This document shows positions 5,056 to 52,015 of a stretch of 64,000 bases of DNA, in pieces; the stretch's first letter is position 1, and every line of letters starts with the position of its first letter. Source of the stretch: Alphaproteobacteria bacterium (GTDB lineage: Bacteria; Pseudomonadota; Alphaproteobacteria; UBA828); contig CBDEUP010000007.1 of the NCBI GenBank assembly GCA_965243315.1, positions 1,833,668 to 1,897,667 on the forward strand, in the 5' to 3' direction. A program made the position numbers and the translations under genes. The notes beneath the pieces were generated by a model, which was not told the origin of the DNA, made no database searches, and saw only the letters and a program-made list of their open reading frames with translations.

Positions 5056-7388
5056 CCGCGCGGCTGATCGGCGAGCCGGTCGAGCGGCGCGAGGATGCGC
5101 GCCTGCTCACCGGTCGCGCGCGCTTCATCGACGACATTCACCTGCCGGAGATGCTGCACGCCGCGGTGCTCCGCAGCCCTCACGCCAAGGCGCGCTTCAC
5201 GCGCATCGATGCCAGCGCGGCGCTCTCGCTTCCCGGCGTTCACGCGGTCATCACCCACGAGGACTTGGGCCCGGCCAACACACCCATGCCGCTCCTCAAC
5301 GAGGACCCCGGCTTCATCCATCCGCGCACCCATCGGGCGCTTGCGCCGGGGCAGGTTCGCTTCGTCGGTGAGCCGGTGGCGCTGGTGGTCGCAAAGAGCC
5401 GCTACCTGGCCGAAGACGCACTCGACCTGATCGAGGTCGACTATGCGCCCGAGGCGGCGGCGGTGGACCTCGTGGCGGCAGCAGAGTCAGGCGCGCCGCT
5501 GGTCCACGACGATACCGATTCCAACGTCGCCTGCCGCACCGCCGACAACACCGGCGATATCGAGAGCGCCTTCGCCGCCGCCGACTTCGTGCTGCGCGAG
5601 GAGCTCCGGCCCGAGCGGGGCGCCGCCCAGCCGATGGAGACCCGGGGCGTCGTCGCCCGCTACGACGCGAGCCTTGAGCAGCTCACGATCTGGGACACGA
5701 CCCAGGCGCCGATCAGTGCCCGCGGCGTCATCGCCGACAAGCTCGGCATGGCGGAAGCCGCCGTCACCGTGATCGCGCCTGACGTGGGCGGTGGCTTCGG
5801 CGTCAAGATCTATCTGGTTTACCCGGAGGAGGTGCTGGTCCCCTTCGCCGCCCGTCTGCTCGGCCGCCCCGTCAAATGGATCGAGGACCGCCGCGAGCAC
5901 TTCATCGGCTCCAACCACGAGCGGCTGATGGTGCACCACATCGAGGTGGCGGCGACCAAGGATGGGCGCATCCTCGGCATCAAGGACCACTTCCTCTACG
6001 ACAGCGGCGCCTACTGCCCCTACGGCCCCATCAACGCCCAGTGCGCCCAGGCCATCCTGCCGGGCCCCTACAAGATCCCGGCGGTGCACTCGACCTACGA
6101 GGCGGTCTACACCAACACGCCGACCGTGAGCCCCTACCGGGGTGCCGGCCAGCCACACGGCAACTTCGTCACCGAAGCGGCCATGAACCACGTGGCCCGC
6201 GCGCTCGGCCTGGATGCGGCCGAGACCAGGTGGCGCAATCTGGTGCGACCTGAGGACTGCCCCTGGGATTCTGGCCGCATCTTTCAGGGCAACACCCCGT
6301 TCATCCACCGCGATAGCGACTATCCCGCACAGCTCGCGAAGACACTCGACGCGCTCGACTATGCGGGCGTCAAGCGCGGCCAGCCGGCTGAGCGCGAGCA
6401 GGGAATCTTCCGCGGCGCCGGCATCGCCTTCTTCGTTGAAGGCACCGGCATCTCGCCCTACGAGGGGGTCGAGGTGCGGGTGGAGCCCACCGGCCACGTG
6501 CACGTGACGACGGGCTATCCCTCGCAAGGGCAGAGCCACCACACCACGCTTACGCAGATCGTGGCGGAGACCCTCGCCGTCCCGCCGGAGCAGGTGGTGG
6601 TGGAAAGCGGGCGGAGCGACCGCTTCGCCTGGGGCGTCGGCACCTTCGCCAGCCGTGCGGCCGTGGTGGGCGGCAACGCTGCGCTCGGTGCGGCCAAGGC
6701 GGTCCGGGCGCGGGCGCTCGACCTCGCTTCGGAGGAACTGGAGGCGGCGCTCGAAGACCTGGTACTGGCGGATGGGGCCGTGCATGTGAAAGGGGCGCCG
6801 CAAATGGCGGTGACGCTCGCCGCTCTTGCGTACGCGGCCAATCCCATCAACACGCTCGAATCGGGCGCAGAGCCGGGCCTCCGCGCCGCGGACTACTACC
6901 GCTCCCCCGATGGCGCGATAGCCAGCGGAGTCCACGGCGCGGTCGTGGTCGTGGATATCGCCACCGGCATGGTGGAGATCGAGACATACGTCGTGGTCCA
7001 CGACTGCGGGGTGATGATCAATCCCACCATCGTCGAGGGCCAGATACTGGGCGGCACGGCGCAGGGGATCGGCGGCGCCTTCTACGAGAAGCTCAGGTTC
7101 GACGAGGACGGCCAGCCGCTGGTGACCACCTTCATGGACTACCTGATCCCGACGGCCATGGAGATCCCGCCGATCGAGATCCACCACATGGAGAGCCGCT
7201 GCAGTCTCAACCCCCTGGGCGTCAAGGGGGTGGGGGAGGGCGGCGCGATCCCCGCTGCCGCGGCCTTCGCAGGGGCCGTGGAGGACGCGCTGGAGCCCTT
7301 CGGCGCGACCGTCCACGCCGTCCCCCTCGACCCGCCCGCCATCCTCGCGCTGATCGAGGGTCACGGCGGCAGCGGCGCGACTCCCTGA
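5052..7388 (+). CDS. molybdopterin-binding large subunit of xanthine dehydrogenase/CO dehydrogenase family (aldehyde oxidase/XDH a/b hammerhead + MoCo-binding)
   Basis: ATG at 5052 overlaps the small-subunit TGA (ATGA); starts MTARLIGEPVERREDARLLTGRARFIDD, typical of CoxL/XdhA N-termini; about 779 aa. The form-I CODH active-site signature (VAYRCSFR) is absent, so substrate unknown. The ORF-track start at 4872 is an upstream extension in the same frame. Confidence 0.9.
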   Translation: MTARLIGEPVERREDARLLTGRARFIDDIHLPEMLHAAVLRSPHAKARFTRIDASAALSLPGVHAVITHEDLGPANTPMPLLNEDPGFIHPRTHRALAPGQVRFVGEPVALVVAKSRYLAEDALDLIEVDYAPEAAAVDLVAAAESGAPLVHDDTDSNVACRTADNTGDIESAFAAADFVLREELRPERGAAQPMETRGVVARYDASLEQLTIWDTTQAPISARGVIADKLGMAEAAVTVIAPDVGGGFGVKIYLVYPEEVLVPFAARLLGRPVKWIEDRREHFIGSNHERLMVHHIEVAATKDGRILGIKDHFLYDSGAYCPYGPINAQCAQAILPGPYKIPAVHSTYEAVYTNTPTVSPYRGAGQPHGNFVTEAAMNHVARALGLDAAETRWRNLVRPEDCPWDSGRIFQGNTPFIHRDSDYPAQLAKTLDALDYAGVKRGQPAEREQGIFRGAGIAFFVEGTGISPYEGVEVRVEPTGHVHVTTGYPSQGQSHHTTLTQIVAETLAVPPEQVVVESGRSDRFAWGVGTFASRAAVVGGNAALGAAKAVRARALDLASEELEAALEDLVLADGAVHVKGAPQMAVTLAALAYAANPINTLESGAEPGLRAADYYRSPDGAIASGVHGAVVVVDIATGMVEIETYVVVHDCGVMINPTIVEGQILGGTAQGIGGAFYEKLRFDEDGQPLVTTFMDYLIPTAMEIPPIEIHHMESRCSLNPLGVKGVGEGGAIPAAAAFAGAVEDALEPFGATVHAVPLDPPAILALIEGHGGSGATP

Positions 7389-7486
7389 CCGCCCCTCCTT
7401 CGCTTGGCGCAGGCGTGGCGGGCGACTATCGTGCGCGGCTTGTCGCCGCAGCACGGGCAACACCGTGACACATAGCGTGAGACCAT

Positions 7487-7546
7487 ATGAGTAGCACCAC
7501 CGAGGGCGCCCGCTACGTGCTGGCCGTCGATGTCGGCGGCACTTAA
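7487..7546 (+). pseudogene. 19-codon remnant of a hydantoinase/oxoprolinase (HyuA-type) N-terminus, truncated at the island border
   Basis: ATG ... TAA encodes MSSTTEGARYVLAVDVGGT*, the canonical start of Hydantoinase_A proteins (compare the intact hyuA at 49857: ...RFRIGVDVGGTFTDL). Confidence 0.45.
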
Positions 7547-7578
7547 ATTGACCTTGATTTTCGGATATCTGGACATTT

Positions 7579-7621
7579 GGGTCCTTGAGACGCCATGAGA
7601 GCCCTGGAGGATGATTTTCGG
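7579..7621. repeat. copy A of a ~40 bp repeated element (GGGTCCTTGAGACGCC...TGGAGGATGATTTTCGG) immediately upstream of int
   Basis: Direct comparison with copy B (9155-9188) and copy C (15179-15216); A and B share GGGTCCTTGAG-CGCC ... TGGAG-ATGATTT-C-GG. Confidence 0.5.
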
Positions 7622-7706
7622 TCTATCCTACCGCAAATAAAAGACTTTTTCCTGCGCCGATACACCTTGCAACGTGGCCATGAGTGCGCTTGAATGACCT
7701 TGAGGC

Positions 7707-7734
7707 GACATCCGATCGCTTACGCATAGCTTAC
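7707..7734. repeat. left copy of imperfect direct repeat CGCTTACGCATAGCTTACGCTTACGGCG (candidate attL core)
   Basis: Matches CCGCTTACAGTACGCTTACACCGGCC at 49829-49854 next to hyuA; both lie at the transitions between core genes and island genes. Confidence 0.3.
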
Positions 7735-7802
7735 GCTTACGGCGTGCACGATTTCGCGAACGGCCGGATGCCGATGAGAACGATTCTCAACAAGGGGGCA
7801 AT

Positions 7803-8987
7803 ATGGCCAAGCTGAAGTTCCGCACCATTTCCAAGCGTACCGTCGATGCGCTTGTCGTCGAGGACCGCGACGAGGTCTTCTGGGACGACCGCATTCCCGG
7901 CTTCGGGGTCCGGGTCTATCCGTCCGGGTCGAAGGTGTATGTCGTCCAGACCCGGCACAGGGGGAAGTCGCGCCGCGTGACGCTCGGGCGCCACGGGGTC
8001 ATGACCGCCGACGAGGCGCGCAAGAAGGCGGCCACGACCCTCAACCGCATGAGGAGCGGCGAGAACCCGGTGGAGCGGGGCTCGGTGACGGTGGCGGAGC
8101 TTGCCGCGCGCTATCTGGCGGAGCATGTCGACATGCGCTGCAAGGAGAGCACGCGGAAGGCGTACCGCAGGGCGGTCGAGCGCTTCATCGTGCCGTCCTA
8201 CGGAGATGTGGCGGTCGAGGACGTCGAGCGCGAGCACATCGACAAGCTGCACCGCGACCTCCACCACATTCCTTACCAGGCGAACCGGGCGCTGGAGATC
8301 GGGACCAGCCTGTTCAACTTCGCCGAGGAGTGGAAGCTGCGCAGCGGGGGCAACCCGTGCAAATACGTGCGCAAGTACCAGGAGAAGAAGCGCGAGCGGT
8401 TCCTGACCGAGGCGGAGTTCCGCCACCTGGGCGCGGTGCTGAACGAGATGGAGGCCGAGGGAAGGTTGCCGGTCTATCCGGCGGCGGCGATCCGGCTGCT
8501 GATGCTGACCGGGTGCCGGCGCAACGAGATCGTCGCGCTCGAATGGAAGCATGTCGATCTTGAGGCGGGCGAGTTGAAGCTCGCGGACTCGAAGACCGGT
8601 GCGCGGCTGGTGCCGCTGTCGCCGGCGGCGGCTCGGGTGCTGGCGGAGCTGCCGCGCATCGCGGGCAACCCGTGGGTCATTCCGGGCACGAAGCCCGGCA
8701 AACACCTTGCCGATCTCAACCATTACTGGGACCGGGTGCGGACGGAGGCGGACCTCGACGACGTGCGGCTTCATGACCTCCGCCACAGCTTCGCGTCCAG
8801 GGCGCTGGCGCTCGGCGAGAGCCTGTCGATGATCGGCAAGCTGCTCGGTCACAACAAGATCGAAACGACCTCGCGCTATGCGCATCTGGCGCGCGATTCG
8901 ATCAAGGCGTCGTCGGCGAAGGTGGCGGAGAGCATCGGCGCAGACATTCTCAACTCGCCGGTAACGGCGGAGACTGCCTCGGCCTGA
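7803..8987 (+). CDS. int: tyrosine-type site-specific integrase (P4-like, DUF4102 N-terminal arm-binding domain)
   Basis: 394 aa; N-terminus RTISKRTVDALVVEDRDEVFWDDRIPGFGVRVYPSGSKVYVVQTR; catalytic C-terminus HDLRHSFASRALALGESLSMIGKLLGHNKIETTSRYAHL (R..H..R..Y). Confidence 0.92.
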   Translation: MAKLKFRTISKRTVDALVVEDRDEVFWDDRIPGFGVRVYPSGSKVYVVQTRHRGKSRRVTLGRHGVMTADEARKKAATTLNRMRSGENPVERGSVTVAELAARYLAEHVDMRCKESTRKAYRRAVERFIVPSYGDVAVEDVEREHIDKLHRDLHHIPYQANRALEIGTSLFNFAEEWKLRSGGNPCKYVRKYQEKKRERFLTEAEFRHLGAVLNEMEAEGRLPVYPAAAIRLLMLTGCRRNEIVALEWKHVDLEAGELKLADSKTGARLVPLSPAAARVLAELPRIAGNPWVIPGTKPGKHLADLNHYWDRVRTEADLDDVRLHDLRHSFASRALALGESLSMIGKLLGHNKIETTSRYAHLARDSIKASSAKVAESIGADILNSPVTAETASA

Positions 8988-9154
8988 CCGGGGGCCGTGT
9001 CGCCGGCCGGCCCGACGTGCCGGCCGGCTGCCGAGGGCGGTGCCAACGCGCCGGAATCGGCTGTCGATTCGGTTGGGCCGCCGATTCCGGGAGCGCCACG
9101 CAAATCGGGCGAGCATTTTTTTCGGACGACTTTCGGGGACATAAGGAGCCTTGA

Positions 9155-9188
9155 GGGTCCTTGAGGCGCCTGGAGCATGATTTGCAGG
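9155..9188. repeat. copy B of the ~40 bp repeated element (GGGTCCTTGAGGCGCCTGGAGCATGATTTGCAGG), downstream of int
   Basis: See copy A; preceded by an extra GAGCCTTGAG half-copy at 9147-9156. Confidence 0.5.
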
Positions 9189-9330
9189 AAATCCCATAGA
9201 TACAGCGGGTTGCAGGGCTCCGCGGCGGCCCTATCCTTGTCTCCATGGACGCGCTCGACACCTTCCATCGCGACGGCCCGAACGCCGATTCCGACCTGGC
9301 TGCCGGGCTCCGGCGCGCACGGCCGGACGC

Positions 9331-9969
9331 TTGCCGGCGGCTCCCGGAGCGGGTCCGATGATCGACCTCGACCGGCTGCGCCGGGCGCTGGTGCTGGGGG
9401 TGCTGGGGGCGGTCGCGATGGCGTTGCTGCTGCCCCCGCTGGCGCTGACGCGCCACACGGATGCCCACGACTGGTATGCCGCGCGCAAGGTAAGCGTGGC
9501 GCAGGCGCTGATCTTCGTCGGCTTCGACGAGCGCGCATTTACGGACTACCGCCTGGCGGACGGCACGCCCGTGAGGTGGACCCGCGACGGCGTGGCGACC
9601 TGGCCGGCGGCGCGGGAGTCTCGCGGTCTCATCCTCGCCGTCATCGGGGACAACATCCTGCTCGGCGCCATCGCGGGATTCGTGGTGGTGTTCACGCTGT
9701 CGGGGCTGCTGAACCTGGCGCGGCACGAAACGGCGGGGGTATGGGGGGCGGCTGCGCGGCGGCCTTCGGCAGCGGAGCGCCGGCCCGGCTTCATCGAAGG
9801 CGTGCCGCCGTATGCGGCGCACGAACCGAACCGTGTGCCGGCGAGAGCCGCCCCGGCGGGAGTTGGGCCGCTCCCGAACGCGGCAGTCCCCTCGCCCGAA
9901 CCGCCCGTCGAGGCGGAGCCCGAAGCGGCGTATGAGCCGCCCGCCCGTCCGCGCGGGCGCTGGTTCTGA
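9331..9969 (+). CDS. hypothetical membrane protein, translationally coupled to traA
   Basis: 212 aa (probable start at MIDLDRLRRALVLGVLGAVAMALLLPPLAL, ~9358); two or three hydrophobic helices, non-biased composition; stop overlaps the traA ATG (TGATGG). Confidence 0.45.
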   Translation: MPAAPGAGPMIDLDRLRRALVLGVLGAVAMALLLPPLALTRHTDAHDWYAARKVSVAQALIFVGFDERAFTDYRLADGTPVRWTRDGVATWPAARESRGLILAVIGDNILLGAIAGFVVVFTLSGLLNLARHETAGVWGAAARRPSAAERRPGFIEGVPPYAAHEPNRVPARAAPAGVGPLPNAAVPSPEPPVEAEPEAAYEPPARPRGRWF

Positions 9970-12900
9970 TGGTCGCCTCGATCGGCGCGGTCGCCTCGCC
10001 CGCCCAGGGGATCAGCTACTACGAGAAGGACTCCTACTACGCCAGGGATTCCGACGAGCACAAGGCAGCGAGCGCTTGGGCGGGCAAGGGGGCAGCGGAA
10101 CTCGGGCTCGAAGGCCCGGTGGACCCGGAGACCTTCCGCGCGGTGCTGGAGGGCGAGGTCCCGGACGGCTCGGGCAAGCGTATCGGCAAGCGCGGCAGGG
10201 AGGGCGAGATCCATCACCGCCCCGGCCGCGACCTGACCTTCAGCGCGCCCAAATCCGTGTCCCTGGCTGCGCTGGTCGGCGGCGACGAACGCATCGTCGG
10301 GGCGCACGACCGCGCGGTGGCGGGCGCGCTCGACTGGTTCGAGCGGAACGCCGCCGAGACCCGGATGCACGATCCCCAGGCTGGGCGCATGGTCCGTGCC
10401 GGCGGCCAGAAGACGGTGGTGGCCACCTTCCGGCATGACACGTCGCGGAACCTCGATCCCGCGCTGCACACCCATTCGGTGATCGCCAACATGCTGCTCG
10501 GCCCGGACGGAAAATGGCGCACCATGGCCAACGAGCGGCTCTACGGCTCGAAGATGGCGCTGGGGGCGCTCTACCGCAACGCGCTGGCGGGCGAGCTCGC
10601 GCGGCTCGGCTATTCCATAGAGAAGACCCACGCCGACGGCCGGTTCGAGATTGCCGGGGTCTCGCGCGAGATTGTGGAGGCGTTCTCGACGAGACGCGCC
10701 GAGATAGAGGCGGCGATGGAGGGCCGGGGCCTCGGCACGACGGGGGAGAACCCGCATCTCGCGCGGCGGGCGGCGCTGATGACGCGCGCGGCCAAGCGCG
10801 AGGTCGACCGCGACGCGCTGAGGGAGACCTGGGAGAAGCAGGCCGCCGCCCTCGGCTTCGATGCGAAAAGGCTGGTCGCCGAGGCGATGGAACGCCACGG
10901 GGCCGAGAAGGCGCGCGAGGCAGAACCAGGCAAGGACGGTCCCCCGGCACCGCCGCGCCAGCCGGACCTGTTCGAGCATGCCGCGAAAGCCGACCCCGCG
11001 CGCGCTGCGGTGGACTGGGCTCTGGCCCATCTCTCGGAGCGCGACGCGGTGTTCTCCACCACCGACCTGCTCGCGGCCGCGCTCGCCTTCGAGCCCGGCA
11101 CGGCCTCCATTGGCGATATCGAGCGCGCCGTGGACGGCCTCAAGCGCGAGGGCCGGCTGCACGATGCGCCTGCATTGGAGGGCGGCGGCGGATTGACCAC
11201 CGACAAGGCGCTGGCCGAGGAGCGCGAGACGGTCGCGCTGATGCGCGCCGGCGAGCGGCGCGGCAAGGCGCCGATGCGCGGCTGGATGGTGGAGCGGCAC
11301 CTGCGCAAGGGTCCGCTCACCGCCGGGCAGAAGCAGGCGGTGAAGCTGATCCTCTCCGAGAAAGACAGAACGGTGGGCGTCCAGGGCTACGCCGGCACGG
11401 GGAAGACGAAGATGCTCGCGCGCGCGAGAACGCTCGCGGAGAAGAAGGGCTGGCGCATGGTGGGCTTGGCGCCCTCGGCCTCGGCGGCGAACACGCTCAA
11501 CTCCGAATCCGGCATCGCCTCGGAGACGCTGCAACGCTTCCTCGCCCGCAACGCGGGCGTCGCCGAGGGCCGGCTGACGAAGAAAGGCGCGAAGGAAATG
11601 CGCAGCCGCTTCGCCAAGACGGTGCTGGTGGTCGACGAGGGCTCGCTCGCTTCCACCGTCCAGGCGCGCGACCTGCTGCGGATCGCCGGTGTGCTGCGTG
11701 TCCCGAAGCTGGTGCTGGTGGGCGATGCGAAGCAGCTCGACGCGGTGGACGCCGGCAAGCCCTTCGCCCAGCTCCAGGCTGCCGGCATGAAGACGGCGGT
11801 GATGGACGAGATCCTGCGCCAGCGCGACCCGGACCTGAAGGCGGCCGTCGGGGCGAGCCTCGCGGGCGAGATCGGCAAGGCGTTCGACAGGCTCGGCGAC
11901 AACGTGGCCGAAGTGAAGGCGGACAATATCGCCGGCGCGGTCGCCGCGCGCTGGCTCAAGCTCTCGCAGGATGAGCGCGAGCGCACCGGGGTGATGGCGC
12001 CGAGCCACGCGCTGCGCGAGGGGATCAACGGCCATATCCGCGAGCGCCTGGTGCGCGAGGGCCGCATCGCGGGTCCCGCCCTGGAGACCCAGCGGCTGGT
12101 CTCGAAGGGCTATACCAACGCGGAGAAGTCGCTCGCGGCCAACTACGCGGCTGGCGACGTGGTCGCCTTCCACCGCGCCTACAAGCGCATCGGCGTCGCC
12201 AAGGGCGAGGAACGCCGGGTCGCCGGCGTCGGCCGCCGGAAGAGGACCGTCCTGCTCGAAGCGCCGGGCGGCGGGACCGTCGCCTGGAAGCCGTCCGAGA
12301 TCGGCGGGCGGCAGGGGGGAACGGAGGTCTACCGCCGCGAGAGCATCGAGCTTCGCGCGGGCGACCGCATTCGCTGGACCCGCAACGACAAGGGTCTCGG
12401 GCTGGTCAACAGCGGCGCAGCCGAAGTCATGGGCATCCGCAACGGCCGCGTGACGTTCCTCCTGGAGGACGGGCGCCGGCTCACGCTCACCCCGGGCGAC
12501 CCGCAACTGCGCCATCTCGACCGCGCCTGGTGCTCGACCGTGCACGCGTTCCAGGGCCGCACCGTCGATAATGTCATTGCCGCGATGGAGGCGAATCATC
12601 CGGCGCTGACGACGCAGAAAGCCCTCTATGTCGAGATCAGCCGCGCCCGCGACCGGGCGGAGCTGGTGACCGACGACGCGCAGGCGCTCAAGGAACGGCT
12701 CGAAGCGGTCACCGGCGAGCGGATCTCGGCGCTCGAAGGCGTCGGCGAGGACGTGCGCGAGCGAGCCGAACGCGGCCGGGAAACCGCGCCGGAAGCGAAG
12801 GAACGCGAGCGCGACCGGGCCGAAGACCCTTCCACGAAGCGGATCGAAACCGCGCACGAGCGGGACGAAAAGGCCGCGCGGGAGAAGGCCGCGCCGGCCG

Positions 12901-13016
12901 GGGACAGGGCCGCGCCCTCGTCGCCGGAGCGGAACCTCGGCCGCGAGGCGCCGCAGCGCAAGGCGCCCGAGCCGCCGGCGAAGGCGAGGGTGCGCGAGTA
13001 CGATCTCGGCATGTAG
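9969..13016 (+). CDS. traA: MobF-family conjugative relaxase/helicase (TrwC/TraA-type)
   Basis: 1015 aa; N-terminal TrwC relaxase with tyrosine pair ISYYEKDSYYA and histidine triad ...DPALHTHSVIANM; central helicase with Walker A GYAGTGKT and C-terminal UvrD-like STVHAFQGRTVD. Confidence 0.92.
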   Translation: MVASIGAVASPAQGISYYEKDSYYARDSDEHKAASAWAGKGAAELGLEGPVDPETFRAVLEGEVPDGSGKRIGKRGREGEIHHRPGRDLTFSAPKSVSLAALVGGDERIVGAHDRAVAGALDWFERNAAETRMHDPQAGRMVRAGGQKTVVATFRHDTSRNLDPALHTHSVIANMLLGPDGKWRTMANERLYGSKMALGALYRNALAGELARLGYSIEKTHADGRFEIAGVSREIVEAFSTRRAEIEAAMEGRGLGTTGENPHLARRAALMTRAAKREVDRDALRETWEKQAAALGFDAKRLVAEAMERHGAEKAREAEPGKDGPPAPPRQPDLFEHAAKADPARAAVDWALAHLSERDAVFSTTDLLAAALAFEPGTASIGDIERAVDGLKREGRLHDAPALEGGGGLTTDKALAEERETVALMRAGERRGKAPMRGWMVERHLRKGPLTAGQKQAVKLILSEKDRTVGVQGYAGTGKTKMLARARTLAEKKGWRMVGLAPSASAANTLNSESGIASETLQRFLARNAGVAEGRLTKKGAKEMRSRFAKTVLVVDEGSLASTVQARDLLRIAGVLRVPKLVLVGDAKQLDAVDAGKPFAQLQAAGMKTAVMDEILRQRDPDLKAAVGASLAGEIGKAFDRLGDNVAEVKADNIAGAVAARWLKLSQDERERTGVMAPSHALREGINGHIRERLVREGRIAGPALETQRLVSKGYTNAEKSLAANYAAGDVVAFHRAYKRIGVAKGEERRVAGVGRRKRTVLLEAPGGGTVAWKPSEIGGRQGGTEVYRRESIELRAGDRIRWTRNDKGLGLVNSGAAEVMGIRNGRVTFLLEDGRRLTLTPGDPQLRHLDRAWCSTVHAFQGRTVDNVIAAMEANHPALTTQKALYVEISRARDRAELVTDDAQALKERLEAVTGERISALEGVGEDVRERAERGRETAPEAKERERDRAEDPSTKRIETAHERDEKAAREKAAPAGDRAAPSSPERNLGREAPQRKAPEPPAKARVREYDLGM

Positions 13017-13059
13017 ACCGAATCCCTAGTCGGCTCCTTGTAACCAACCGCGCTTTTGT

Positions 13060-13087
13060 TTGCGAATTGGCCCCGTTTCGATAATAT
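13060..13087 (+). promoter_or_regulatory. candidate sigma70-type promoter for fic (TTGCGA - 16 nt - TAATAT)
   Basis: AT-richer stretch 50-75 nt upstream of the fic ATG with near-consensus hexamers; flanked by GTTTCG direct repeats. Confidence 0.35.
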
Positions 13088-13135
13088 CGTCATGGCTTGT
13101 TTTCGTTTCGCAAATAGAGGACGCCACGCCGCACC

Positions 13136-14335
13136 ATGGCCGGGTCCGACAAGAATCGTAAGCCCCACGGTCGCACAATCCGCTGCGCCGGCGGCTACCG
13201 GGCGTTCCTTCCGGCCCCGCTTCCGCCGCCGATCGGGTGGAACGATACGCTGGCCATGGCTCTTTCAAGCGCGGACCTCGCAGTCGGACGCCTCGCCGGA
13301 GAGGGAAGCCGGTTTCCAAACCCGCATCTCTTTATCCGCTCCTTCGTGCGCCGGGAAGCGGTATTGTCGAGCCGGATCGAGGGGACGCGGACGACGCTTG
13401 CCGAATTGCTCGCCGCCGAAGCCGGTGCGAAGGACGCGGCGGACAGCGCCGACTTGCGCGAAGTGGCGAACTACGTTGCCGCGCTCGAATACGGGCTCGA
13501 CCGTCTCGACACCTTGTCGTTGTCGCTGAGGCTGATCCGCGAGATTCACGGGCGGCTCATGCGCGGGGTGCGGGGCGATTCGGCGACGCCGGGAGAGTTC
13601 CGCCGCAGTCAGAACTGGATCGGCCCGCCCGGCTGCACGCTGGACGACGCGAGCTACGTGCCGCCCCCGCCCGACGAGTTGATGGACTGCCTCGACGCCC
13701 TGGAGCGGTTTCTTCACGACGACAGCCTTCCGGTGCTGGTGCATGCGGCGCTCGCGCACGCGCAATTTGAGGCGATCCATCCGTTTCTCGACGGCAACGG
13801 CCGGGTCGGCCGGCTGTTGATCACGCTGCTGCTGGCCGAGCGCGGCATCCTGCCCTCGCCGCTGCTCTATCTGAGCGCGTATTTCGAGGAGACCCGCGAA
13901 GATTACTATGCGCATTTGCTCGCGATTACGGAGGCGGGCGCGTGGGAAGACTGGCTCGTCTACTTCCTGCGCGGTGTCCGGTTGCAGGCGGACGACGCCC
14001 TCGCGCGCATCGAACACCTCGACACTTTGCACGAGTCCTGGCGCGACGATCTCGGCGACGCGCTGTCGCCTCGGCTCAACGAGGTCCTGAGCCTGTTCGT
14101 GGAAAGCCCGTTCTGGACCGTCGGCGAGATCGGCAAGACGCTCGGTATTGCCTATACCACCGCGCGGCGCGCGGTCGACCGGCTGGAAGAGGCCGGTATC
14201 GTGTCGCCGTCCGGGCCGTCGAGACGCAACCGGGTCTACTGCGCGCGCGCCGCTCTGGAGGCGCTCAGCGATCCGCTGCAACTGGCAGAGCCCTCCGGTC
14301 CCGGTGCTCGCGCAGGATCGCCGGACGGTCCTTGA
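13136..14335 (+). CDS. Fic/Doc family protein (class II Fic, putative AMP-transferase) with C-terminal winged-helix domain
   Basis: 399 aa; Fic active-site motif HPFLDGNGRVGR; N-terminal inhibitory-helix motif SSRIEG ([S/T]xxxE[G/N]); conserved N-terminus YRAFLPAPLPPP. Confidence 0.9.
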   Translation: MAGSDKNRKPHGRTIRCAGGYRAFLPAPLPPPIGWNDTLAMALSSADLAVGRLAGEGSRFPNPHLFIRSFVRREAVLSSRIEGTRTTLAELLAAEAGAKDAADSADLREVANYVAALEYGLDRLDTLSLSLRLIREIHGRLMRGVRGDSATPGEFRRSQNWIGPPGCTLDDASYVPPPPDELMDCLDALERFLHDDSLPVLVHAALAHAQFEAIHPFLDGNGRVGRLLITLLLAERGILPSPLLYLSAYFEETREDYYAHLLAITEAGAWEDWLVYFLRGVRLQADDALARIEHLDTLHESWRDDLGDALSPRLNEVLSLFVESPFWTVGEIGKTLGIAYTTARRAVDRLEEAGIVSPSGPSRRNRVYCARAALEALSDPLQLAEPSGPGARAGSPDGP

Positions 14336-14487
14336 GGCCACGATCGTCGGGAACCCGGCCCGCAGCGTTCCCGGCATGGAGAAATTCGGGGCTGAAGATC
14401 AGGCAACAGCGGCGCTTCTCGAACCGGACGGTCACCGCCTCCCGTTCGGAACCGGAGCAAGAGTCGCGATGCGTCCGCCCAAATCTC

Positions 14488-14874
14488 TCACGCCGTTTCT
14501 TCGCCGAGGGCCTCCGCCATCGCCTTGCGCCCGTCTTCGAGGATGCTGTTGAGCTGCTTGTTGCGCTTTGCGCCGAGCAGTTCCTCCTGGCGGAGCGTGG
14601 TCAGCAGGTAGACGCCGCGGTAGATGTCTTCGATCAGCGCGATGTGACCGGGCGACATCGGCGCCGCATCGGGGCGCTGGACCCGCTCCTCGGCGGCGGC
14701 GAGCATCACGGCGCGAACGAATTGTCCGGCCGGTATCCCCTGGCGCAGGGCCGCGTCCTCGACCAGTTGCCACTCGGAATCGGAGAAACGGATCGAGCGC
14801 GCGCGGCGCGGATCGCCCGCGCGGGCGTCGAACTCGTTCGATGTCGAGCGAGACTTTCGAGGGTTTCGGGCCAC
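14488..14874 (-). CDS. ribbon-helix-helix (CopG/MobC/TrwA-like) DNA-binding protein, putative relaxosome accessory or regulator
   Basis: 128 aa (GTG start); segment RARSIRFSDSEWQLVEDAALRQGIPAGQFVRAVMLAAA is a typical RHH beta-strand plus two helices. Confidence 0.5.
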   Translation of the reverse strand: MARNPRKSRSTSNEFDARAGDPRRARSIRFSDSEWQLVEDAALRQGIPAGQFVRAVMLAAAEERVQRPDAAPMSPGHIALIEDIYRGVYLLTTLRQEELLGAKRNKQLNSILEDGRKAMAEALGEETA

Positions 14875-15145
14875 GTCGCTGCTCCTTCTCGGCCTCGCCG
14901 GCGTCGGTTGCGGGTCGAAAACGCTTCCGCAACCCGGCCCGCCCGGCCCGCTCCCGGCCCAAACTTGCTCGCCTCGGCAAGGTTGTCGCGGCGCTCCGCC
15001 ACCTACCGGCTAACGGTATCGGCGAACGCCTGAAGGTCGTCGCGAGCAAGGCCGCACGGCGCTCGCGGCGGGCCGGTACGACCGATTCCGGCGCACACAA
15101 TCCGTGTTTACAGCGTATTACATCGTCATACGCAAGGCAATTGGG

Positions 15146-15165
15146 CGATACGCGATCGTGTATCG
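15146..15165. promoter_or_regulatory. near-perfect 20 bp palindrome CGATACGCGATCGTGTATCG in a ~1 kb noncoding region upstream of the RHH gene (candidate operator or oriT inverted repeat)
   Basis: 18/20 self-complementary; preceded by a relatively AT-rich stretch (GTTTACAGCGTATTACATCGTCATACGC); no credible ORF between 14875 and 15890. Confidence 0.3.
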
Positions 15166-15178
15166 GTCGGGGACAGGA

Positions 15179-15216
15179 GGGGCCTTGAGATGCCCCGAGA
15201 CGACAAAATTGCGGAG
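15179..15216. repeat. copy C of the repeated element (GGGGCCTTGAGATGCCCCGAGACGACAAAATTGCGGAG)
   Basis: Shares the GG(G/T)CCTTGAG(A/G)(C/T)GCC core with copies A and B. Confidence 0.35.
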
Positions 15217-15891
15217 AACCGGCGTATGCTCCGGAGAAGCACGCTCGCTCCGCAATCCTGCTGTCGTCTCCTGTCCTCTCACGGCCTCTCAAGGGCACTG
15301 GAGGGCACGTCTGTCCCCCAATGGCGGGCCTTGCAGCGGGCTGCGTCCGGTGTGAGAACGACGCGCCGAAGGGCGTCCTGATCCTGCTTCCTTGACGCCC
15401 AAGCACTCGGGACATGGAAGCCGTTTTGTAACCGGCATTTAGCCCGAGCGGCGCTTGAGCGGCAGCGCCCGCCGCGCATGAGAGAGAACGGTCTACGAAC
15501 CGCCGCGCGGCATCCGACCGGTAGTGTAGGAAGCACGAGACGGCGAAGCAATTGCAAACCGACCCGCGCACTGGCCGGGTCATTCGTGCGGCCCGCGCTG
15601 TCGGCGACGGCGCGCACGATGCCCGGCGCGAAGTCGTGCCCGCTACGGCATCCGACCGTCGGTCCCTTCTCGCATTGTGCGGCGAACCGCGTGCGGCTAT
15701 CGGTGCGGCCATGCGATCATCGTCGCGCTTCAATGCTCAACGGTCGCCCGCGCCCAAGCCGCCGCAGTCGAGCTTGCGCGTCGCACGGGGCGACCGCATG
15801 GTGACGGGAACGGGAGGCGAGCGAGGAGACATGCGCCGATGAACAATGCCGCGTCATCAGAACGCGCGACCGGTCGGCACTGCCGATCGGT

Positions 15892-16922
15892 GTGCTCGTC
15901 GTCACGGTCGGCGCGATGACTCCGGGCGCGTTCATCGCCAAGTGGCGGGCGTCGGAGTTGAAGGAAAGCTCGGCGTCGCACGAACACTTCATCGACCTGT
16001 GCCGCCTGCTCGGCGAGCCGACGCCGGCGGAGGCCGACCCGGCGGGCGAGCGGTACTGCTTCGAGCGTGGCGCGCGGAAGGACACCGGCGGCGACGGCTG
16101 GGCCGACGTATGGAAGCGCGGCTTCTTCGCATGGGAGTACAAGGGCAAACGCGCGGACCTCGACGCGGCGTTCAATCAACTGCGGCAGTACGCGCTCGCG
16201 CTGGAGAATCCGCCGCTGCTGATCGTCTCGGACATGGCGCGGTTCCGCGTCCGCACCAACTGGACGAACAGCGTGAGCGTGACGCACGAGTTCACGCTCG
16301 ACGACCTCGCCGACGGCGCGACCCGCGACAAGCTCAAGTGGGCGATGTCGGACCCGGAGCGGCTGCGGCCCGGCGAGACGCGGCAGACGGTGACGGAGCG
16401 CGCGGCGGCAACCTTCGCGGAGCTTGCCCAAGGGTTGCGGGATCGGGGCCACGACCCGCAGACGGTGGCGCACTTCGTCAACCGTCTGGTGTTCTGCATG
16501 TTCGCCGAGGATGTCGGCCTGCTGCCCGGCGACATGTTCACCCGGATGCTGGAACAGGCATGCAGGCGGCCGGACGAGTTCGCTGAGCTTGCCCGCGACC
16601 TGTTCGGGGCAATGTCTGTCGGAGGCCGCGTCGGATTCGAGTCCGTGGCCTGGTTCAACGGCGGGCTGTTTGACGACGACACGGCGTTGCCGCTCGACCG
16701 GCAAGGAATCGAGACGGCGCTCAAGGCGGCGGCGCTCGACTGGTCGGAGATCGACCCGTCAATCCTCGGCACACTGTTCGAGCGCGGCCTCGACCCGGAC
16801 AAGCGTTCGCAGTTGGGCGCGCACTACACCGACCGCGACAAGATCATGCGGATCGTCGAGCCGGTGATCGTTCGGCCCCTGCTCGCGGAATGGGAGACGG
16901 CGAAGGCCGGGATCGCGGCTAC
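15892..16922 (+). CDS. MmeI-family type IIL restriction-modification enzyme, exon 1 (N-terminal PD-(D/E)XK endonuclease domain and linker)
   Basis: N-terminal FIAKWRASELKESSASHEHFIDLCRLLGEPTP...DVWKRGFFAWEYKGKRADLDAAFNQLRQYALALENPPLLIVSDMARFRV parallels the MmeI nuclease domain; LFERGLDPDKRSQLGAHYTDRDKIMRIVEPVI is the MmeI/PglX-family helical motif. The reading frame is interrupted after ...ETAKAGIAAT (codon AC|) by a group II intron starting GTGCG at 16923. Confidence 0.75.
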
Positions 16923-18839
16923 GTGCGCCAGGCTAACTGGTGACAGTGCAGCCGGTGAAAGTCCGGCAGGAGGGAGAAGATTAGCCATCACCTTCACCCC
17001 GAGTCATGGGCCGTCATCCGCGAGGATGGAGGTTAAGCGTTGACAGGGGCGCGTGCGGGCAGGGCTATTGAGCACCGAAAGAGATTTGGTCCGGGATGCC
17101 GAGGTCTTGTAGTCAACCGAAGGCAGCATCCGACCCACCGATTTGGCGAGGGGGGTCGGAATCCCGCGGTGTCGAAGAACCCACGCACGTACGTACGCAC
17201 TGCACCGGGACCTGGGAGGTCTCCATGCCATCCCGCTGTCGTGGCGGGATCGCAAAGGAAAGGAGGAATCCGCAACCGATGATGAACGGCATGGAGAAGT
17301 CAGACTCGGCCATAGTAGCCGCGAAGCCGGCGAACAATGGGGCGCCAGCCCCGGCGGAGCCGGTGGAGCCAAGGGCCGAGCCCAAGGGGAATCCGGGAAG
17401 CCAAAGCACGTGCCGGACGCAGGACCGGGAAAGCGTGACACAGGCGGCGGACCGGATACGGCAATTTGTACAACGGGAGCCACGGGTACGTCTCACGACG
17501 CTCCTTCACCACATCACGGTCGATGCGCTGCGCTGGGCGTTCTTCGAGTTGAAGAAGGACGCTGCGGCAGGCGCGGATGGCACAACGTGGCGGATGTACG
17601 AGGAAGGGCTGGAAGGCCGGCTGGCCGACCTGCACGACCGAGTACATTCGGGGGCGTACCGAGCGAGGCCATCACGGCGGGTGAACATACCGAAGCCGGA
17701 TGGCGGGACACGACCGCTCGGCGTCGCGGCCATAGAGGACAAGATAGTCCAGAAGGCGGTGGCGGAGATTATCCTGACGCCGATTTACGAGGCGGAGTTC
17801 CTGGGGTTCAGCTACGGGTTCCGGCCCGGGCGTGGAGCGCATGACGCGCTCGATGCGCTCGCGGTCGGCATTCAACGGCGCAAGATCAACTGGGTGGTGG
17901 ACGTTGACGTCCGCGCATTCTTCGACACGGTTTCGAGGGACTGGCTGGTCCGGTTCCTTGAGCACCGCATCGGGGACAAGCGGGTTATCAGGCTCATCAT
18001 CAAATGGTTGAACGCCGGCGTCATGGAAGCTGGAGAGTGGCGGGACAATCTGCGGGGAACGCCTCAAGGGTCGGTGGCTTCACCGATTCTGGCGAACGTC
18101 TACCTGCACTACGTCCTCGACCTGTGGTTCCAGAAGAAGTGGCGCAACCACGAAGTCGGAGGCGACACAATCATCGTGCGGTACGCGGATGATTTCGTGG
18201 TGGGTTTTCAGCACAAGCGGGATGCGGAGCGATTCCTGAATGCCATAAAGGAGCGGCTTGGAAACTTCGGCCTGGACATACACCCTGACAAGACCCGGCT
18301 CATTGAGTTCGGGCGGTTCGCCCATGGAAACCGTCGGCAACGAGGGCTGGGCAGACCGGAGACCTTCGACTTTCTGGGCTTCACGCACTACTGCACGGAG
18401 ACCAGACGGGGGTGCTTCATGTTGGGGCGCAAGCCGGTTGCCAAGCGGATGAGTCGCACCCTGAAACGGCTCAAGGAAGCGCTACGCAGGCGTATGCACA
18501 GCGACATGATTGGCACGGCAAGATGGCTAGGGAAGGTGGTCTCAGGCTGGCTGAACTACTTTGCGGTTCCGACCAGCCACCGCTATCTGCGCCGCTTCGT
18601 CGAACGCCTAAAGTGGCTGTGGTGCAGGAATGTGCGCCGCAGGTCGCAAAAGGACCGCTACAGTCTGGACCGTATCGCAGCGTTAGCACGGCAATACTGG
18701 CCCAAGCTGAAAATTCGACACCCATGGCCGGACCAGCGACTTGCCGTCAATTGAACCCAAGGGAGGAGCCGGATGCCCTAGCGGGCACGTCCGGATCTGC
18801 GCGGGGGGCGTGTGGGACAACCCGCGTTCCTACCGCAAT
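16923..18839 (+). mobile_element. group II intron (about 1.9 kb) inserted in the RM gene
   Basis: 5' end GTGCGCC; IEP ORF in domain IV; domain V GAGCCGGATGCCCTAGCGGGCACGTCCGGATCT (18766-18798) matches the GAGCCGTATG...CACGTACGGTTC consensus with compensatory changes; a ~40 nt domain VI then ends ...CGCAAT (AU). Removing 16923-18839 joins AC+C and restores the downstream MTase frame. Confidence 0.8.
17279..18754 (+). CDS. group II intron-encoded protein (reverse transcriptase/maturase; no HNH endonuclease domain seen)
   Basis: SD AGGAGGA 10 nt upstream of ATGATG; RT blocks TTLLHHITVDALRWAFFELKKDAAAGADGTTW, IPKPDGGTRPLGVAAIEDKIVQKAV, FLGFSYGFRPGRGAHDAL, IVRYADDFVVGF (YADD); C-terminal domain X WLNYFAVPTSHRYLRRF. 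The ORF track starts the frame earlier at 17096. Confidence 0.85.
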   Translation: MMNGMEKSDSAIVAAKPANNGAPAPAEPVEPRAEPKGNPGSQSTCRTQDRESVTQAADRIRQFVQREPRVRLTTLLHHITVDALRWAFFELKKDAAAGADGTTWRMYEEGLEGRLADLHDRVHSGAYRARPSRRVNIPKPDGGTRPLGVAAIEDKIVQKAVAEIILTPIYEAEFLGFSYGFRPGRGAHDALDALAVGIQRRKINWVVDVDVRAFFDTVSRDWLVRFLEHRIGDKRVIRLIIKWLNAGVMEAGEWRDNLRGTPQGSVASPILANVYLHYVLDLWFQKKWRNHEVGGDTIIVRYADDFVVGFQHKRDAERFLNAIKERLGNFGLDIHPDKTRLIEFGRFAHGNRRQRGLGRPETFDFLGFTHYCTETRRGCFMLGRKPVAKRMSRTLKRLKEALRRRMHSDMIGTARWLGKVVSGWLNYFAVPTSHRYLRRFVERLKWLWCRNVRRRSQKDRYSLDRIAALARQYWPKLKIRHPWPDQRLAVN

Positions 18840-20670
18840 CGTCGAACGCGCGGACGTGGCGGGTTCTCCGGCGGCGCAGACACGGCTACGGCGGCAGGCG
18901 GACCGGGCGCTGCGCACCTTCCTCGACCGGCTGCGGCAGTTCACCGTGCTCGACCCGGCCTGCGGGTCGGGGAACTTCCTGTATCTTGCGCTGCACGCGC
19001 TCAAGGACATCGAGCACCGGGTCCAGCTCGAAGCGGAGACGCTCGGCCTTGCGCGCGGGTTCCCGGCGGTCGGCCCGGCGAACGTGAAGGGAATCGAGAT
19101 CAACGCCTACGCCGCCGAGCTTGCCCGCGTGTCGGTGTGGATCGGCGAAATCCAGTGGATGCGGCGCAACGGGTTCAGCAATTCGACCAATCCGATTCTC
19201 GATCCGCTCGACACCATCGAATGCCGCGATGCGGTCCTTTCGCCCGACGGAGGACAACCGGACTGGCCCGACGCCGACGCCGTGATCGGCAACCCGCCGT
19301 TTCTGGGCGACCGGGTGATGCGGGACGGACTCGGCCACGACTATACAGAGCGCCTGCGCCGCGCCTATCGCGGTTCCGTCCCGGCGTCCGCAGATCTTGT
19401 TTGCTACTGGTTCCACAAGGCAGGCCAGCTAATCGCCGGAGAGAAGATCGCCCGCGTCGGTCTGGTCTCCACCAACTCGATCCGCGGCGGAAATAACCGG
19501 GCGGTACTCGACCGGATCGTCGAGGACAGCGCCATTTTTGACGCTTGGTCCGACGAACCCTGGGTTATCGACGGTGCGGCGGTGCGGGTCTCGCTGGTCT
19601 GCTTCGCGCCGAAGGGCGCCGACCTGCCCGTTACGCTGGACGGTGCCGCGGCGGCGCGCATCAACCCAGACCTGACAGGCGGGGGCCTCGACCTCACGCA
19701 AGCGGCGGGACTGCCCGCAAACCGTGCTGTTGCCTTCCTTGGCGTCAATAAGAATGGCGCTTTCGACATTCCGGGGGATGTTGCGCGGGAATGGCTGGGC
19801 CTGCCCGCCAACCCGAACGGGCGTCCGAACGCCGATGTCTTGAAGCCTCGGATCGTCGGAATGGATGTGGTGCGCCGGTCATCCGACCAATGGATTATCG
19901 ACTTCGGCGTTTCCATGACCGAAGCCGAGGCTGCACTCTACGAAGCCCCGTTCGCTCATGTTGCGGAGCATGTGAAGCCGGTACGGGCGACCAACCGAAT
20001 CAAGGCGCTTAGGGAAGAATGGTGGCGACACTCGCGGCCCCGTCCGGCGATGTGGCGGGCCGTAAGCGGCATGAAACGCTTCATCGCGACGCCGACCCTT
20101 GCAAAGCATCGGCTGTTCGTCTGGCTCGATGCGGGCGTCTGTCCCGACCATCAGTTGATCGTCATCGCCCGCGACGACGACGTGACCTTCGGCATCTTGC
20201 ACAGCCGGTTTCACGAGGCATGGTCGCTGCGGTTGGGGACCTGGCTCGGCAAAGGGAACGATCCGCGCTACACGCCGACCACCACCTTCGAGACCTTCCC
20301 CTTCCCGGACGGCCTCTCGCCGGATATTCCCGCCGCAGACTATGCGGAAGACTCCCGCGCCGTCGCCATCGCCGAGGCCGCAAGGCGATTGGTCGAGTTG
20401 CGCGACCGCTGGCTCAACCCGCCCGAATGGGTGGAATGGATCGACGAACCCGTTCCCGGCTATCCGAAACGTACTGTCCCCCGCGACGAGGCGGCGGCAA
20501 AGGAACTCAAGGCCCGCACGCTGACAAACCTGTACAATGCCCGCCCGCAATGGCTGACCGACGCGCACTCGGCACTTGATGCCGTTGTCGCTGCGGCCTA
20601 CGGATGGGACAAGAGGATCAACGACAATGTGGCAATGAACAAATTGCTCACGCTAAATCTGACAAGATAG
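18840..20670 (+). CDS. MmeI-family type IIL RM enzyme, exon 2 (gamma-class N6-adenine methyltransferase and target-recognition domain)
   Basis: After the junction reads VERADVAGSPAAQTRLRRQADRALRTFLDRLRQFTVLDPACGSGNFL (SAM motif I) ... DAVIGNPPFLGD (motif IV NPPF). The spliced product would be about 945-953 aa, similar to MmeI (919 aa). Confidence 0.75.
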
Positions 20671-20705
20671 AACGCCGCCGCCAACCGTAAGTGTAGGAGC
20701 CAGTT

Positions 20706-21659: not shown

Positions 21660-21699
21660 ATGCTAGAAAACTCGTGCCCCGTTCTTGGACCCGCTGATT

Positions 21700-24085: not shown

Positions 24086-24864
24086 GGTCGCGGCTCCCTG
24101 TTCGGGCCGCGCGGCTGGCCGGTAATGCAGGAAGCAGCCGCGGCGGCGTTTCGTCGGGGATGCCGCGAGGCGGTGCGGGACCGATGGAACCGTAAGGCCC
24201 TGCTATTGCAGGGTTTTCCGGCTACTCATGCGGTGGCGGGCGGAGGCAGGATTGGCACCGTCGGTGCGTCCGGTGTGGTTCCAAAGCCCGCCCCGGCGGG
24301 TCAGAGGCCATGAATCTGCTGAATTTTCCAAGGGGGAATGGACGCCGGAGAACCCGGCAGGGTGAAGCCGCCGCGGCGCTGAGCGGCGGGGCGTGCCGTC
24401 ACGAACCGGGACGGTCGCGCCCGGCGAGGTGACGGAGGCGCCGATGGTGGAACCCGCCCGATGCCGGTCGCACCTGCATCGGGTTCTGTGGAGGCCGGCA
24501 ACGGCGACGCGCGCGATGATCGCGATGACGACCGCGACCACGGTCACCAGCGCCGTGCATCGTGTCGTGCACGATGATCGGCGCATTAGCCGACGCGCTA
24601 TGCGAAGCATGGTGCGGAGGCGACCGACAGGACGGGCGATCGCGAGTCCCGTCGCGGTGTCCGCCGTGGCGATCAAGTCGGCGATCATGATCGCCGACAG
24701 CGCCGAGGGTGGGAGCGAGTAGCGCGAGCGGATCGGTGTGAGCGGCAGCGAACGCACTGGTGATCGGCGAATCCCCCGGATCGTGGTCCGGGGGCAGGCA
24801 TCGCCCGGCGAGCGCGGCGCGAAGCGCGCGCGAGGAAGACGGCGCCGCCGCAACGCCGTCGGTC

Positions 24865-52013: not shown

Positions 52014-52015
52014 AC

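Follow-up and report, generated by a model that had tools for sequence, protein, structure and literature searches.

In this study, a repeated DNA module was analyzed in a 64,000-nucleotide stretch (the window) of contig CBDEUP010000007.1 from an Alphaproteobacteria bacterium of the UBA828 lineage (GenBank assembly GCA_965243315.1, positions 1,833,668 to 1,897,667). The repeats are real. They form an array of about 70 bases with units spaced 10 bases apart, and the array stands at three control regions of a genomic island: upstream of the integrase gene int1, upstream of the operon orf38-orf203-relaxase, and upstream of a gene for a ribbon-helix-helix (RHH)-like protein. The module may be a cis-acting protein-binding element, that is, a shared operator or architectural array which would couple int expression and excision with mobilization. 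We infer the binding, the binder, and the regulatory outcome from the sequence, and this reading was given a probability of about 0.5. The original prediction had proposed copies of an attachment (att) site, integrase arm-type sites, or a shared operator or leader of island operons. The last of these fitted best, as the module lies upstream of all three transcription units, is conserved across related islands, and changes its unit number in 10-bp steps.

If so, the module would provide a concrete cis element for coupling int expression and excision to relaxase expression in an island family of uncultured symbionts. The map of the region was also corrected for the att sites, the likely arm sites (GCTTAC), and the position of a nested island (Table 1). 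The biology is a variation on the known control logic of integrative and conjugative elements (ICEs) and integrative mobilizable elements, with no new principle.

Table 1. Features of the island and its surroundings (positions in the window).
Feature	Position	Strand	Remarks
hyuA, displaced original 5' end (MSSTTEGARYVLAVDVGGT, then island-supplied stop)	7487–7546	+	Left island junction; Hydant_A_N domain
attL core GGCGGCAC	7535–7542	.	Crossover region common to attR; GGCGGCAC then TTAAAT kept in related loci
Copy 1: TTTTCGGATATCTGGACA, three phased units, GATGATTTT, GGTCTATCC	7558–7628	+	16–86 nt inside the island, integrase-proximal att arm
TTGCAA-N17-TTGAAT, promoter-like; candidate int promoter	7667–7695	+	Between module and GCTTAC repeats; CTTGAAAC..TACAAG block kept in att-arm alignment
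Solitary fourth CCTTGAG unit	7698–7704	+	13 nt upstream of GCTTAC repeats; column kept as CCYKGAG in att-arm alignment
GCTTAC x3 (spacing 11 and 6), best candidate integrase arm-type sites, P' arm	7718–7740	+	Invariant in all 17 loci examined
int1, tyrosine integrase, P4-like, Arm-DNA-bind_3 N-terminal domain	7803–8987	+	Pfam; 64 relatives
Inverted repeat GCCGGAATCGGC ... GCCGATTCCGGG	9050–9091	.	Upstream of copy 2; conserved in relatives; several GANTC sites
Copy 2: T-run/CGG, two CGGGGACA-like boxes, three units, CATGATTT, short GATTT/AAATC inverted repeat	9119–9194	+	
TTGCAG-N16-TATCCT; candidate promoter of the mobilization operon	9210–9247	+	Invariant; orf38 ATG 7 nt on, candidate leaderless first gene
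Mobilization operon: orf38 (9245–9361), membrane orf203 (9358–9969), MobF/TrwC relaxase-helicase (9969–13016)	9245–13016	+	Pfam, NCBIfam
Fic	13136–14335		
RHH-like protein, 128 aa, candidate unit binder	14488–14874	-	Sub-threshold DUF6290, NikA-like, RelB matches
Near-perfect 20-bp palindrome CGATACGCGATCGTGTATCG	15146–15165	.	Adjoins copy 3
Copy 3: GGGGACAG, CCTTGAG (15183), CCCCGAG (15193), GACGACAAAATTGCGGAG	15169–15216	+	
Copy 4: GGGGGACAG .. CCTTGAG .. CCGTGAG .. GGAGACGAC .. ATTGCGGAG	15248–15319	-	Inverted relative to copy 3
Direct repeat TGCGTCCGGTGTG, 13 bp, left copy	15342–15354	.	
Nested island, ~8.9 kb: MmeI-type restriction-modification genes, group II intron, int2, int3	15355–24264		Flanked by TGCGTCCGGTGTG
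Direct repeat TGCGTCCGGTGTG, right copy	24265–24277		
YAcAr, single-stranded DNA-binding protein, serine recombinase, insertion sequence			Further right in island
Calx-beta autotransporter, 3810 aa	38122–49554		
FseA-like activator remnant, 50 aa	49570–49722	+	tblastn to orf190 of related locus L192
GCTTAC-N5-GCTTAC, P arm	49831–49847	+	128 nt left of attR core
attR core GGCGGCAC	49959–49966	.	Inside restored hyuA

Structure and Statistics of the Repeat Module

Copies 1 and 2 share a TTTTCGG box, a GGACA box, three CCTTGAG-like units, and GGAG-N-ATGATT. The units follow each other in exact 10-bp steps in both copies: CCTTGAG (7583), CCATGAG (7593), and CCTGGAG (7603) in copy 1; CCTTGAG (9149), CCTTGAG (9159), and CCTGGAG (9169) in copy 2. 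The unit consensus was CCYTGAG/CCTGGAG. Each array holds two to four 7-bp units, which the exact 10-bp spacing places on one face of the helix. The T-run/CGG and GGACA boxes precede the units, and the AT-rich ATGATT box follows them.

The original prediction had described direct repeats of about 40 bp on both sides of int and a degenerate third copy next to a 20-bp palindrome. The repeat sequences were found at the positions it gave, the palindrome was located at 15146–15165, and the repeat was longer and more structured than noted. The ungapped match between 7571–7628 and 9137–9194 covered 58 nt with 71% identity, and a single 5-nt indel carried the similarity leftward to the TTTTCGG box over the full length of both copies. 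Smith–Waterman alignment of the two intergenic regions gave a score of 37. Dinucleotide shuffles gave 18.1 ± 2.3 and at most 30; of 1000, 0 reached the observed score. The tandem pattern CCTTGAGNNNCCNNGAG, with at most one mismatch, had six matches against 0.4 expected, all at the three loci.

For a further search of the 64-kb window, an nhmmer profile was made from 13 copy-2 regions, all of them from other genomes. It matched copy 2 at E 3e-27, copy 1 at E 1.9e-5, and copy 4 at E 0.064; its sole other match was a marginal one (E ~1.1) at 7644–7704, which holds the solitary fourth CCTTGAG unit. A profile of the W subtype only (described below) matched copy 3 at E 0.02. CCTTGAG alone was not diagnostic: 21 of its 28 occurrences were inside genes, 10 of these as in-frame CTC-AAG-G.

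Copy 3 alone was only marginal in pairwise comparison (26 and 66 of 1000 shuffles). It pairs with the inverted copy 4, which had not been reported before, and the pair recurs in two related loci (L027 and L187). The region 15136–15325, which contains both copies, is a long imperfect palindrome with a fold z of -5.2. Copy 3 is thus considered real as a member of the inverted pair, and the earlier third copy stands in that form rather than as a repeat on its own. The earlier statement that each copy ends in GGAG plus ATGATTT held for copies 1 and 2 and not for the other copies.

Two simpler explanations of the module were rejected. A small ORF starting at the ATG of the ATGATT box was neither conserved nor coding-like. 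The units were also considered as sigma-70 -35 boxes; the distance from unit to ATGATT shifted by 10-bp steps among loci instead of being fixed at 16–18 nt, and the promoter scan found no promoter there.

Position of the Copies Relative to Transcription Units

Copy 1 lies about 80–145 nt upstream of the presumed int promoter. Copy 2 lies 57 nt upstream of the relaxase operon and about 55–125 nt upstream of the presumed orf38-orf203-MobF promoter. At the far end of the mobilization cassette, the RHH-like gene is preceded by the inverted pair of copies 3 and 4. The block TTGCRG-N16-TATCCT-N7-ATG is likely a promoter with a leaderless orf38, judging from its conservation. A strict sigma-70 scan found no promoters, including the candidate int and mobilization promoters.

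Conservation across Related Islands

In the genome collection, the integrase had 64 relatives. Identity was 73–97% for about 25 of these, which came from Defluviicoccus, Rhodospirillales, and Alphaproteobacteria metagenome-assembled genomes, several copies to a genome. The RHH-like protein, with its 211 homologues, led to more islands. Related loci are numbered with the prefix L.

The stretch from the att core to the int ATG could be aligned over 12 loci. Its invariant blocks were core/TTAAAT, ATTTTCGGATATCTGGACA, GACATTTC, CTTGAAAC, and GGTCGCTTACG-N5-CTTACGCTTACGG, and its variable block was the phased-unit array, which changed by whole 10-bp steps (e.g., in L011). Since the array lies between invariant blocks, copy 1 is an intrinsic part of the integrase-proximal att arm, which is conserved in at least 12 islands. 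Apart from this, L001 (5552–9973) carried a 4.3-kb insertion between the GCTTAC repeats and int, with zero Pfam matches, and L003, L005, and L187 carried insertions of about 130 bp at the same point with the common right end ...CCATCACTGCGTGACCGAACGCTTTCG.

Copy 2 was kept in all 17 loci in which the relaxase operon follows int, and was followed there by the invariant TTGCRG-N16-TATCCT-N7-ATG. Its unit number was two or three among loci, the difference being exactly 10 bp. Copy 4 was found beside the RHH-like gene in every locus with an intact spacer (no intron), even in the relaxase-less L184 and L185, and was conserved in L002, L005, L027, and L183–L190. The units occurred in both direct and inverted arrangement, as CTGGAG-N4-CTCCAG in L-type copy 4 and as TTCCAG..CTGGAG in some copy-2 regions. 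Direct and inverted units are typical of operator arrays.

Two subtypes of the module were distinguished: W, with GGGGACA boxes, and L, without them. The subtype co-varied over the att arm, copy 2, and copy 4. Four islands were W (the window, L001, L027, and L187), nine were L (L002–L005, L009, L183, and L188–L190), and none was mixed. The window grouped with the L islands by integrase identity (95–96%) and by RHH-like protein identity, despite its W module. The co-variation suggests that the copies are constrained together.

In the plasmid collection, only distant relaxase or integrase matches were obtained, and no related module was found. The att-arm pattern was absent from viral contigs; matches of CCTGGAGNATGATTYG in these contigs were taken, unexamined, as due to chance. 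A metagenome scan with ATTTTCGGATATNNGGACA gave 62 matches, one of which was genuine (L141).

Comparison with Attachment Sites and Integrase Arm-Type Sites

The copies were compared with the att sites in Table 1. Neither the GGCGGCAC/TTAAAT core (none at 9100–9200 or 15150–15320) nor CGCTTAC was present at copies 2–4, and an origin of these copies as att sites from tandem accretion, as had been proposed, is accordingly not supported. Nor do the copies coincide with recombination junctions. The real junctions nearest to them, those of the nested island near copy 4, use the different repeat TGCGTCCGGTGTG, and in the cargo after int, variation sets in with the int stop codon instead of with the module. 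It is very improbable that copy 2 and copies 3 and 4 are degenerate att arms or the boundaries of a captured mobilization cassette. Such an origin would agree with the way copy 2 (+) and copy 4 (-) bracket the cassette from orf38 to the RHH-like gene as inverted repeats, and with the frequency of tandem integrases and nested islands in the family; ATCGGGCGAGCATTT, left of copy 2, is also vaguely like the core region. However, 8990–9110 had no similarity to the P arm, the comparative breakpoints lie off the modules, and copy 2 is conserved together with the invariant promoter-like block in 17 loci.

The GCTTAC repeats were the most conserved part of the att arm. GCTTAC-N5-GCTTAC occurred in the window only at 7718 and 49831, and was invariant upstream of int in 17 of 17 loci. 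The P arm of L192, a second independent island, also carried GCTTAC-N5-GCTTAC (7004–7020), again exactly 128 nt from the core. As they stay constant along with the integrase and recur on either arm at a set distance, the GCTTAC repeats are the better candidates and are probably the true integrase arm-type sites.

The CCTTGAG-like units themselves could in principle be arm-type sites, with those of copy 1 equivalent to P'1-P'3 and bound by the integrase N-domain, and copies 2–4 as additional integrase sites. The integrase has an Arm-DNA-bind_3 domain and is the only protein common to all islands with the att-arm array. Three tandem sites 41–70 nt from the core on the integrase-proximal arm have the geometry of lambda P'1-P'3. 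This assignment is nevertheless distinctly unlikely. The arm-binding domain had 99–100% identity over its first 106 residues among the window, L001, and L002 (one E/D difference at residue 99) and was nearly invariant in L013–L017, while the units differed between the window and L002 and were replaced in L013–L017 by unrelated phased repeats (TGACAGCAA x2, GACA x4 at 10 bp, and GTGCC x2). These lineage-specific units did not recur elsewhere in those loci. In the window and in L192 alike, no triple CCTTGAG array was found up to 400 nt from the attR core, so the P arm lacks it. The earlier arm-site proposal shifts to a different repeat, GCTTAC, although copy 1 does lie within the integrase-proximal att arm.

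Proposed Shared Operator and Candidate Binder

The shared operator remained the preferred reading. A cooperative array for an oligomeric protein was proposed because of the helical phasing, the indels of whole units, the direct and inverted arrangements, and the positions upstream of three transcription units. In this model, one oligomerizing DNA-binding protein of the island would occupy all arrays. Array occupancy would tie integrase expression and the att-arm architecture (excision) to the relaxase operon and to the gene of the binder itself.

The first candidate binder in the window would be the RHH-like protein; apart from the relaxase, no other putative DNA binder of the cassette is conserved. 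Its predicted beta-strand RSIRFSDSEW was nearly invariant among the 211 homologues. Residues 27–63 matched DUF6290 (E 0.006), NikA-like (E 0.03), and RelB (E 0.057) models, all below the cutoffs (Pfam, NCBIfam), and no match was found among the Protein Data Bank sequences. The AlphaFold 2 model had a low mean confidence (pLDDT 58), with helices at 32–45 and 49–66 after an extended segment, and its quality did not suffice for a fold search. Alternative binders would be a recombination directionality factor or an FseA-like activator, coming from sister elements. Measured from the core, the units of copy 1 occupy +41 to +70 and the GCTTAC repeats +176 to +198; the units thus stand where a binding array for a directionality factor (excisionase) would be expected, on one arm and nearer the core than the candidate arm-type sites. 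A cognate directionality factor was not found in the window, which has no HTH_17/Xis-type gene; an HTH_17 gene was present in the related ICE-like loci L193 and L195. Since sister elements carry an FseA-like activator and an HTH_17 excisionase and the window holds only a remnant, the binder could come in trans. The island copy in the window may be regulatorily crippled.

Several points weigh against the shared operator or against parts of it. The identity of the binder is a guess, and the RHH membership of the candidate rests on sub-threshold matches and a poor structural model. Att arms with the array were found in islands without a relaxase or RHH-like gene in the first 10 kb (L006–L012), and the att-arm array therefore needs no cassette-encoded protein in cis. 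The RHH-like homologue of L191 keeps the beta-strand, yet no CCTTGAG units lie upstream of it. The promoter distances rest on weak conserved hexamers, with a negative strict sigma-70 scan. The W/L co-variation may come from a single ancestral event. Finally, a role of copy 2 or of copies 3 and 4 in the origin of transfer (oriT) or the relaxosome appears inseparable from an operator role.

Possible oriT or Relaxosome Function

The arrays could be sites for a relaxosome accessory protein (RHH, NikA/TrwA-like). Either copy 2 or the palindrome of copies 3 and 4 would then be oriT, and the att arm would carry, in copy 1, a second assembly site like oriT. In favor of this, the MobF operon directly follows copy 2, in a region that also contains an inverted repeat, a T-run, a hairpin, and phased direct repeats. 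The 130-bp imperfect palindrome made up of copies 3 and 4 adjoins the 20-bp palindrome and the RHH-like gene, whose product has a weak NikA-like similarity. In R388, the RHH protein TrwA binds oriT repeats and represses trwABC, which was counted in favor of such a function. On the other side, no nic sequence of the R388 or F type was present in these non-coding regions, and the copy-2 consensus had no conserved covarying hairpin after the array (covariation term +0.32). The att arms of relaxase-less islands bear the array too. A relaxosome role was judged rather unlikely; it overlaps the operator and does not exclude it.

There is only a slim chance that the copy in the att arm works as an oriT-like or relaxosome-assembly site, in which case every island of the family, the relaxase-less ones included, could be mobilized in trans through a sister island of that genome. 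Alternatively, the TrwC-type relaxase could recombine module copies. The integrase-proximal att arm would then have a double role, in site-specific recombination and in conjugative processing.

Comparison with Known Systems

The RdfS/IntS/FseA control of ICEMlSymR7A from Mesorhizobium is the nearest known analogue. RdfS binds attP directly upstream of intS, as well as PrdfS and PrdfG, and coordinates int expression, excision, and transfer (PMC11963761). RdfS activates PintS, attenuates PrdfS, and stimulates excision, and IntS autorepresses (PMC11963761). FseA, which is formed from DUF6499 and DUF2285 via a +1 frameshift, activates PrdfS (PMC10359603). Like ICEMlSymR7A, the island has a P4-type integrase with arm sites and a candidate int promoter inside the att region. 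The module can be likened to the sites of RdfS, one oligomerizing protein acting at attP upstream of intS as well as upstream of a relaxase-containing operon. Relatives of the island also hold an FseA-like DUF6499 and DUF2285 pair over two overlapping ORFs, together with an HTH_17 excisionase.

The differences from ICEMlSymR7A are clear. The RdfS sites have no consensus motif and yielded no definable sequence motif, whereas a 7-bp unit in strict 10-bp phase was defined here. An HTH_17 gene is missing from the window, where a 50-aa remnant is left of the FseA-like gene. The island has a MobF/TrwC relaxase together with the candidate RHH-like binder, no type IV secretion system (T4SS) genes, and hyuA as the target rather than a tRNA gene.

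In KplE1, TorI and IntS act at the intS promoter embedded in attL (PMC2951348). As in KplE1 and P4, int here reads away from attL and its promoter region overlaps the recombination arm; with such an arrangement, recombination proteins can double as regulators. Unlike the module here, where binding is predicted, the KplE1 sites are confined to attL, with no second or third copy at transfer genes. In CTnDOT, Xis2c and Xis2d activate the tra and mob operons (PMC3809561). The parallel lies in excision proteins that have a second role, binding upstream of the tra and mob promoters and activating them. The element family and the protein folds are unrelated, however, and no shared phased repeat module is described for CTnDOT.

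The array also resembles lambda attP, whose P'1-P'3 and Xis sites (X1-X1.5-X2) likewise come as three direct sites in tandem, spaced by about one helical turn and located on one arm between core and distal sites. Unlike the module, the lambda sites are not duplicated at distant promoters, and the units here do not track the integrase N-domain. RHH arrays (TrwA at R388 oriT, omega heptads, NikA, and CopG) likewise have short units in variable number, direct or inverted, as seen here near an RHH-like gene and a relaxase operon. The omega heptads are contiguous 7-mers, whereas the units here are 10-bp phased. This likeness is limited, as the RHH membership of the 128-aa protein comes from sub-threshold matches.

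The Island and Its Insertion Site

The window has a G+C content of about 70%. Left of the island, mutS and a cox/xdh-like operon run up to 7388. The hyuA frame from 7487 is interrupted after GGCGGCAC by TTAAAT. The V-D-V-G-G-T codons of this displaced end recur with GGCGGCAC at 49950–49966 and restart the intact hyuA at 49950; the restored hyuA covers 49857–52013, and the intact hyuA-hyuB pair covers 49857–53791. As the hyuA 5' codons and GGCGGCAC are duplicated at both ends, the 42 kb between them are an insertion. GTSGAYGTSGGCGGCAC, which includes the core, occurred only at 7526–7544 and 49950–49968, besides two matches inside hyuA and hyuB. These features indicate that the island is an integrative mobilizable element of about 42 kb at the 5' end of the protein-coding gene hyuA. 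This label was chosen because no T4SS genes were present in the island. A tRNA gene was considered as the target, and none was found in the window.

Every related island sits at GTNGAYGTNGGCGGCAC, at the 5' end of a hyuA-like paralogue that differs from island to island. Insertion by this integrase family takes place at the codons of the conserved V-D-V-G-G-T motif, at the N-terminus of differing hyuA/oxoprolinase paralogues (the window and the att arms of L004, L006, L009, L183, and L188–L190), and several islands are therefore possible per genome. The new 5' end for the target gene comes from the right end of the island and is not conserved. Because of this, a search for further attR ends through the hyuA N-terminus gained none; one further attR, in L192, was gained through the autotransporter C-terminus. 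In the literature, no paper was found that joins hydantoinase, integrase, genomic island, and attB.

Genes Carried by the Island

The relaxase matched the NCBIfam MobF model with 286.9 bits (cutoff 100), and the synteny of the mobilization operon was kept in at least 13 loci. The nested-island site is uninterrupted in L002 and L027. The nested island also holds orf317, and its two tandem integrases are on the minus strand; int3 and int2 overlap by 32 nt (21700–24085). Tandem or overlapping integrase genes are recurrent in the family (the window; L002, 8421–9605; L019–L022).

A group II intron at 16923–18839 splits the MmeI-type gene (Rfam D1-D4 176 bits, plus domain V; reverse transcriptase ORF at 17096–18754). 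L005 holds an intron-free version of this gene, and related group II introns lie upstream of the RHH-like gene in L001, L003, and L189. An Rfam scan of 7300–21000 gave the group II intron (16958–18839) as the sole match, with no RNA family on the module copies.

The FseA-like remnant retains the DUF6499-type motif AWLFLRR, as described for FseA (PMC10359603), and its DNA-binding part is gone. An intact pair of orf190 and RovC_DNA-bd was found in L192 and L195. In these relatives the FseA-like gene is whole (L192, 6058–6836; L195, 6008–6795) and consists of two overlapping ORFs, the second matching RovC_DNA-bd/DUF2285, which recalls the frameshift-dependent FseA of ICEMlSymR7A. In L193 (6748–9284) and L195 (7537–9908), an HTH_17 excisionase and traL/traE/traK/trbI directly follow the autotransporter and FseA-like genes. 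As those elements carry an excisionase and tra/trb genes at this place, the island of the window looks like a T4SS-less, mobilizable relative of full ICEs.

The Calx-beta autotransporter ORF contains a perfect (GCCGA) x 20.8 tract at 38157–38260, within its first ~50 codons. Such a pentanucleotide tract early in an ORF is a classic arrangement for slipped-strand phase variation.

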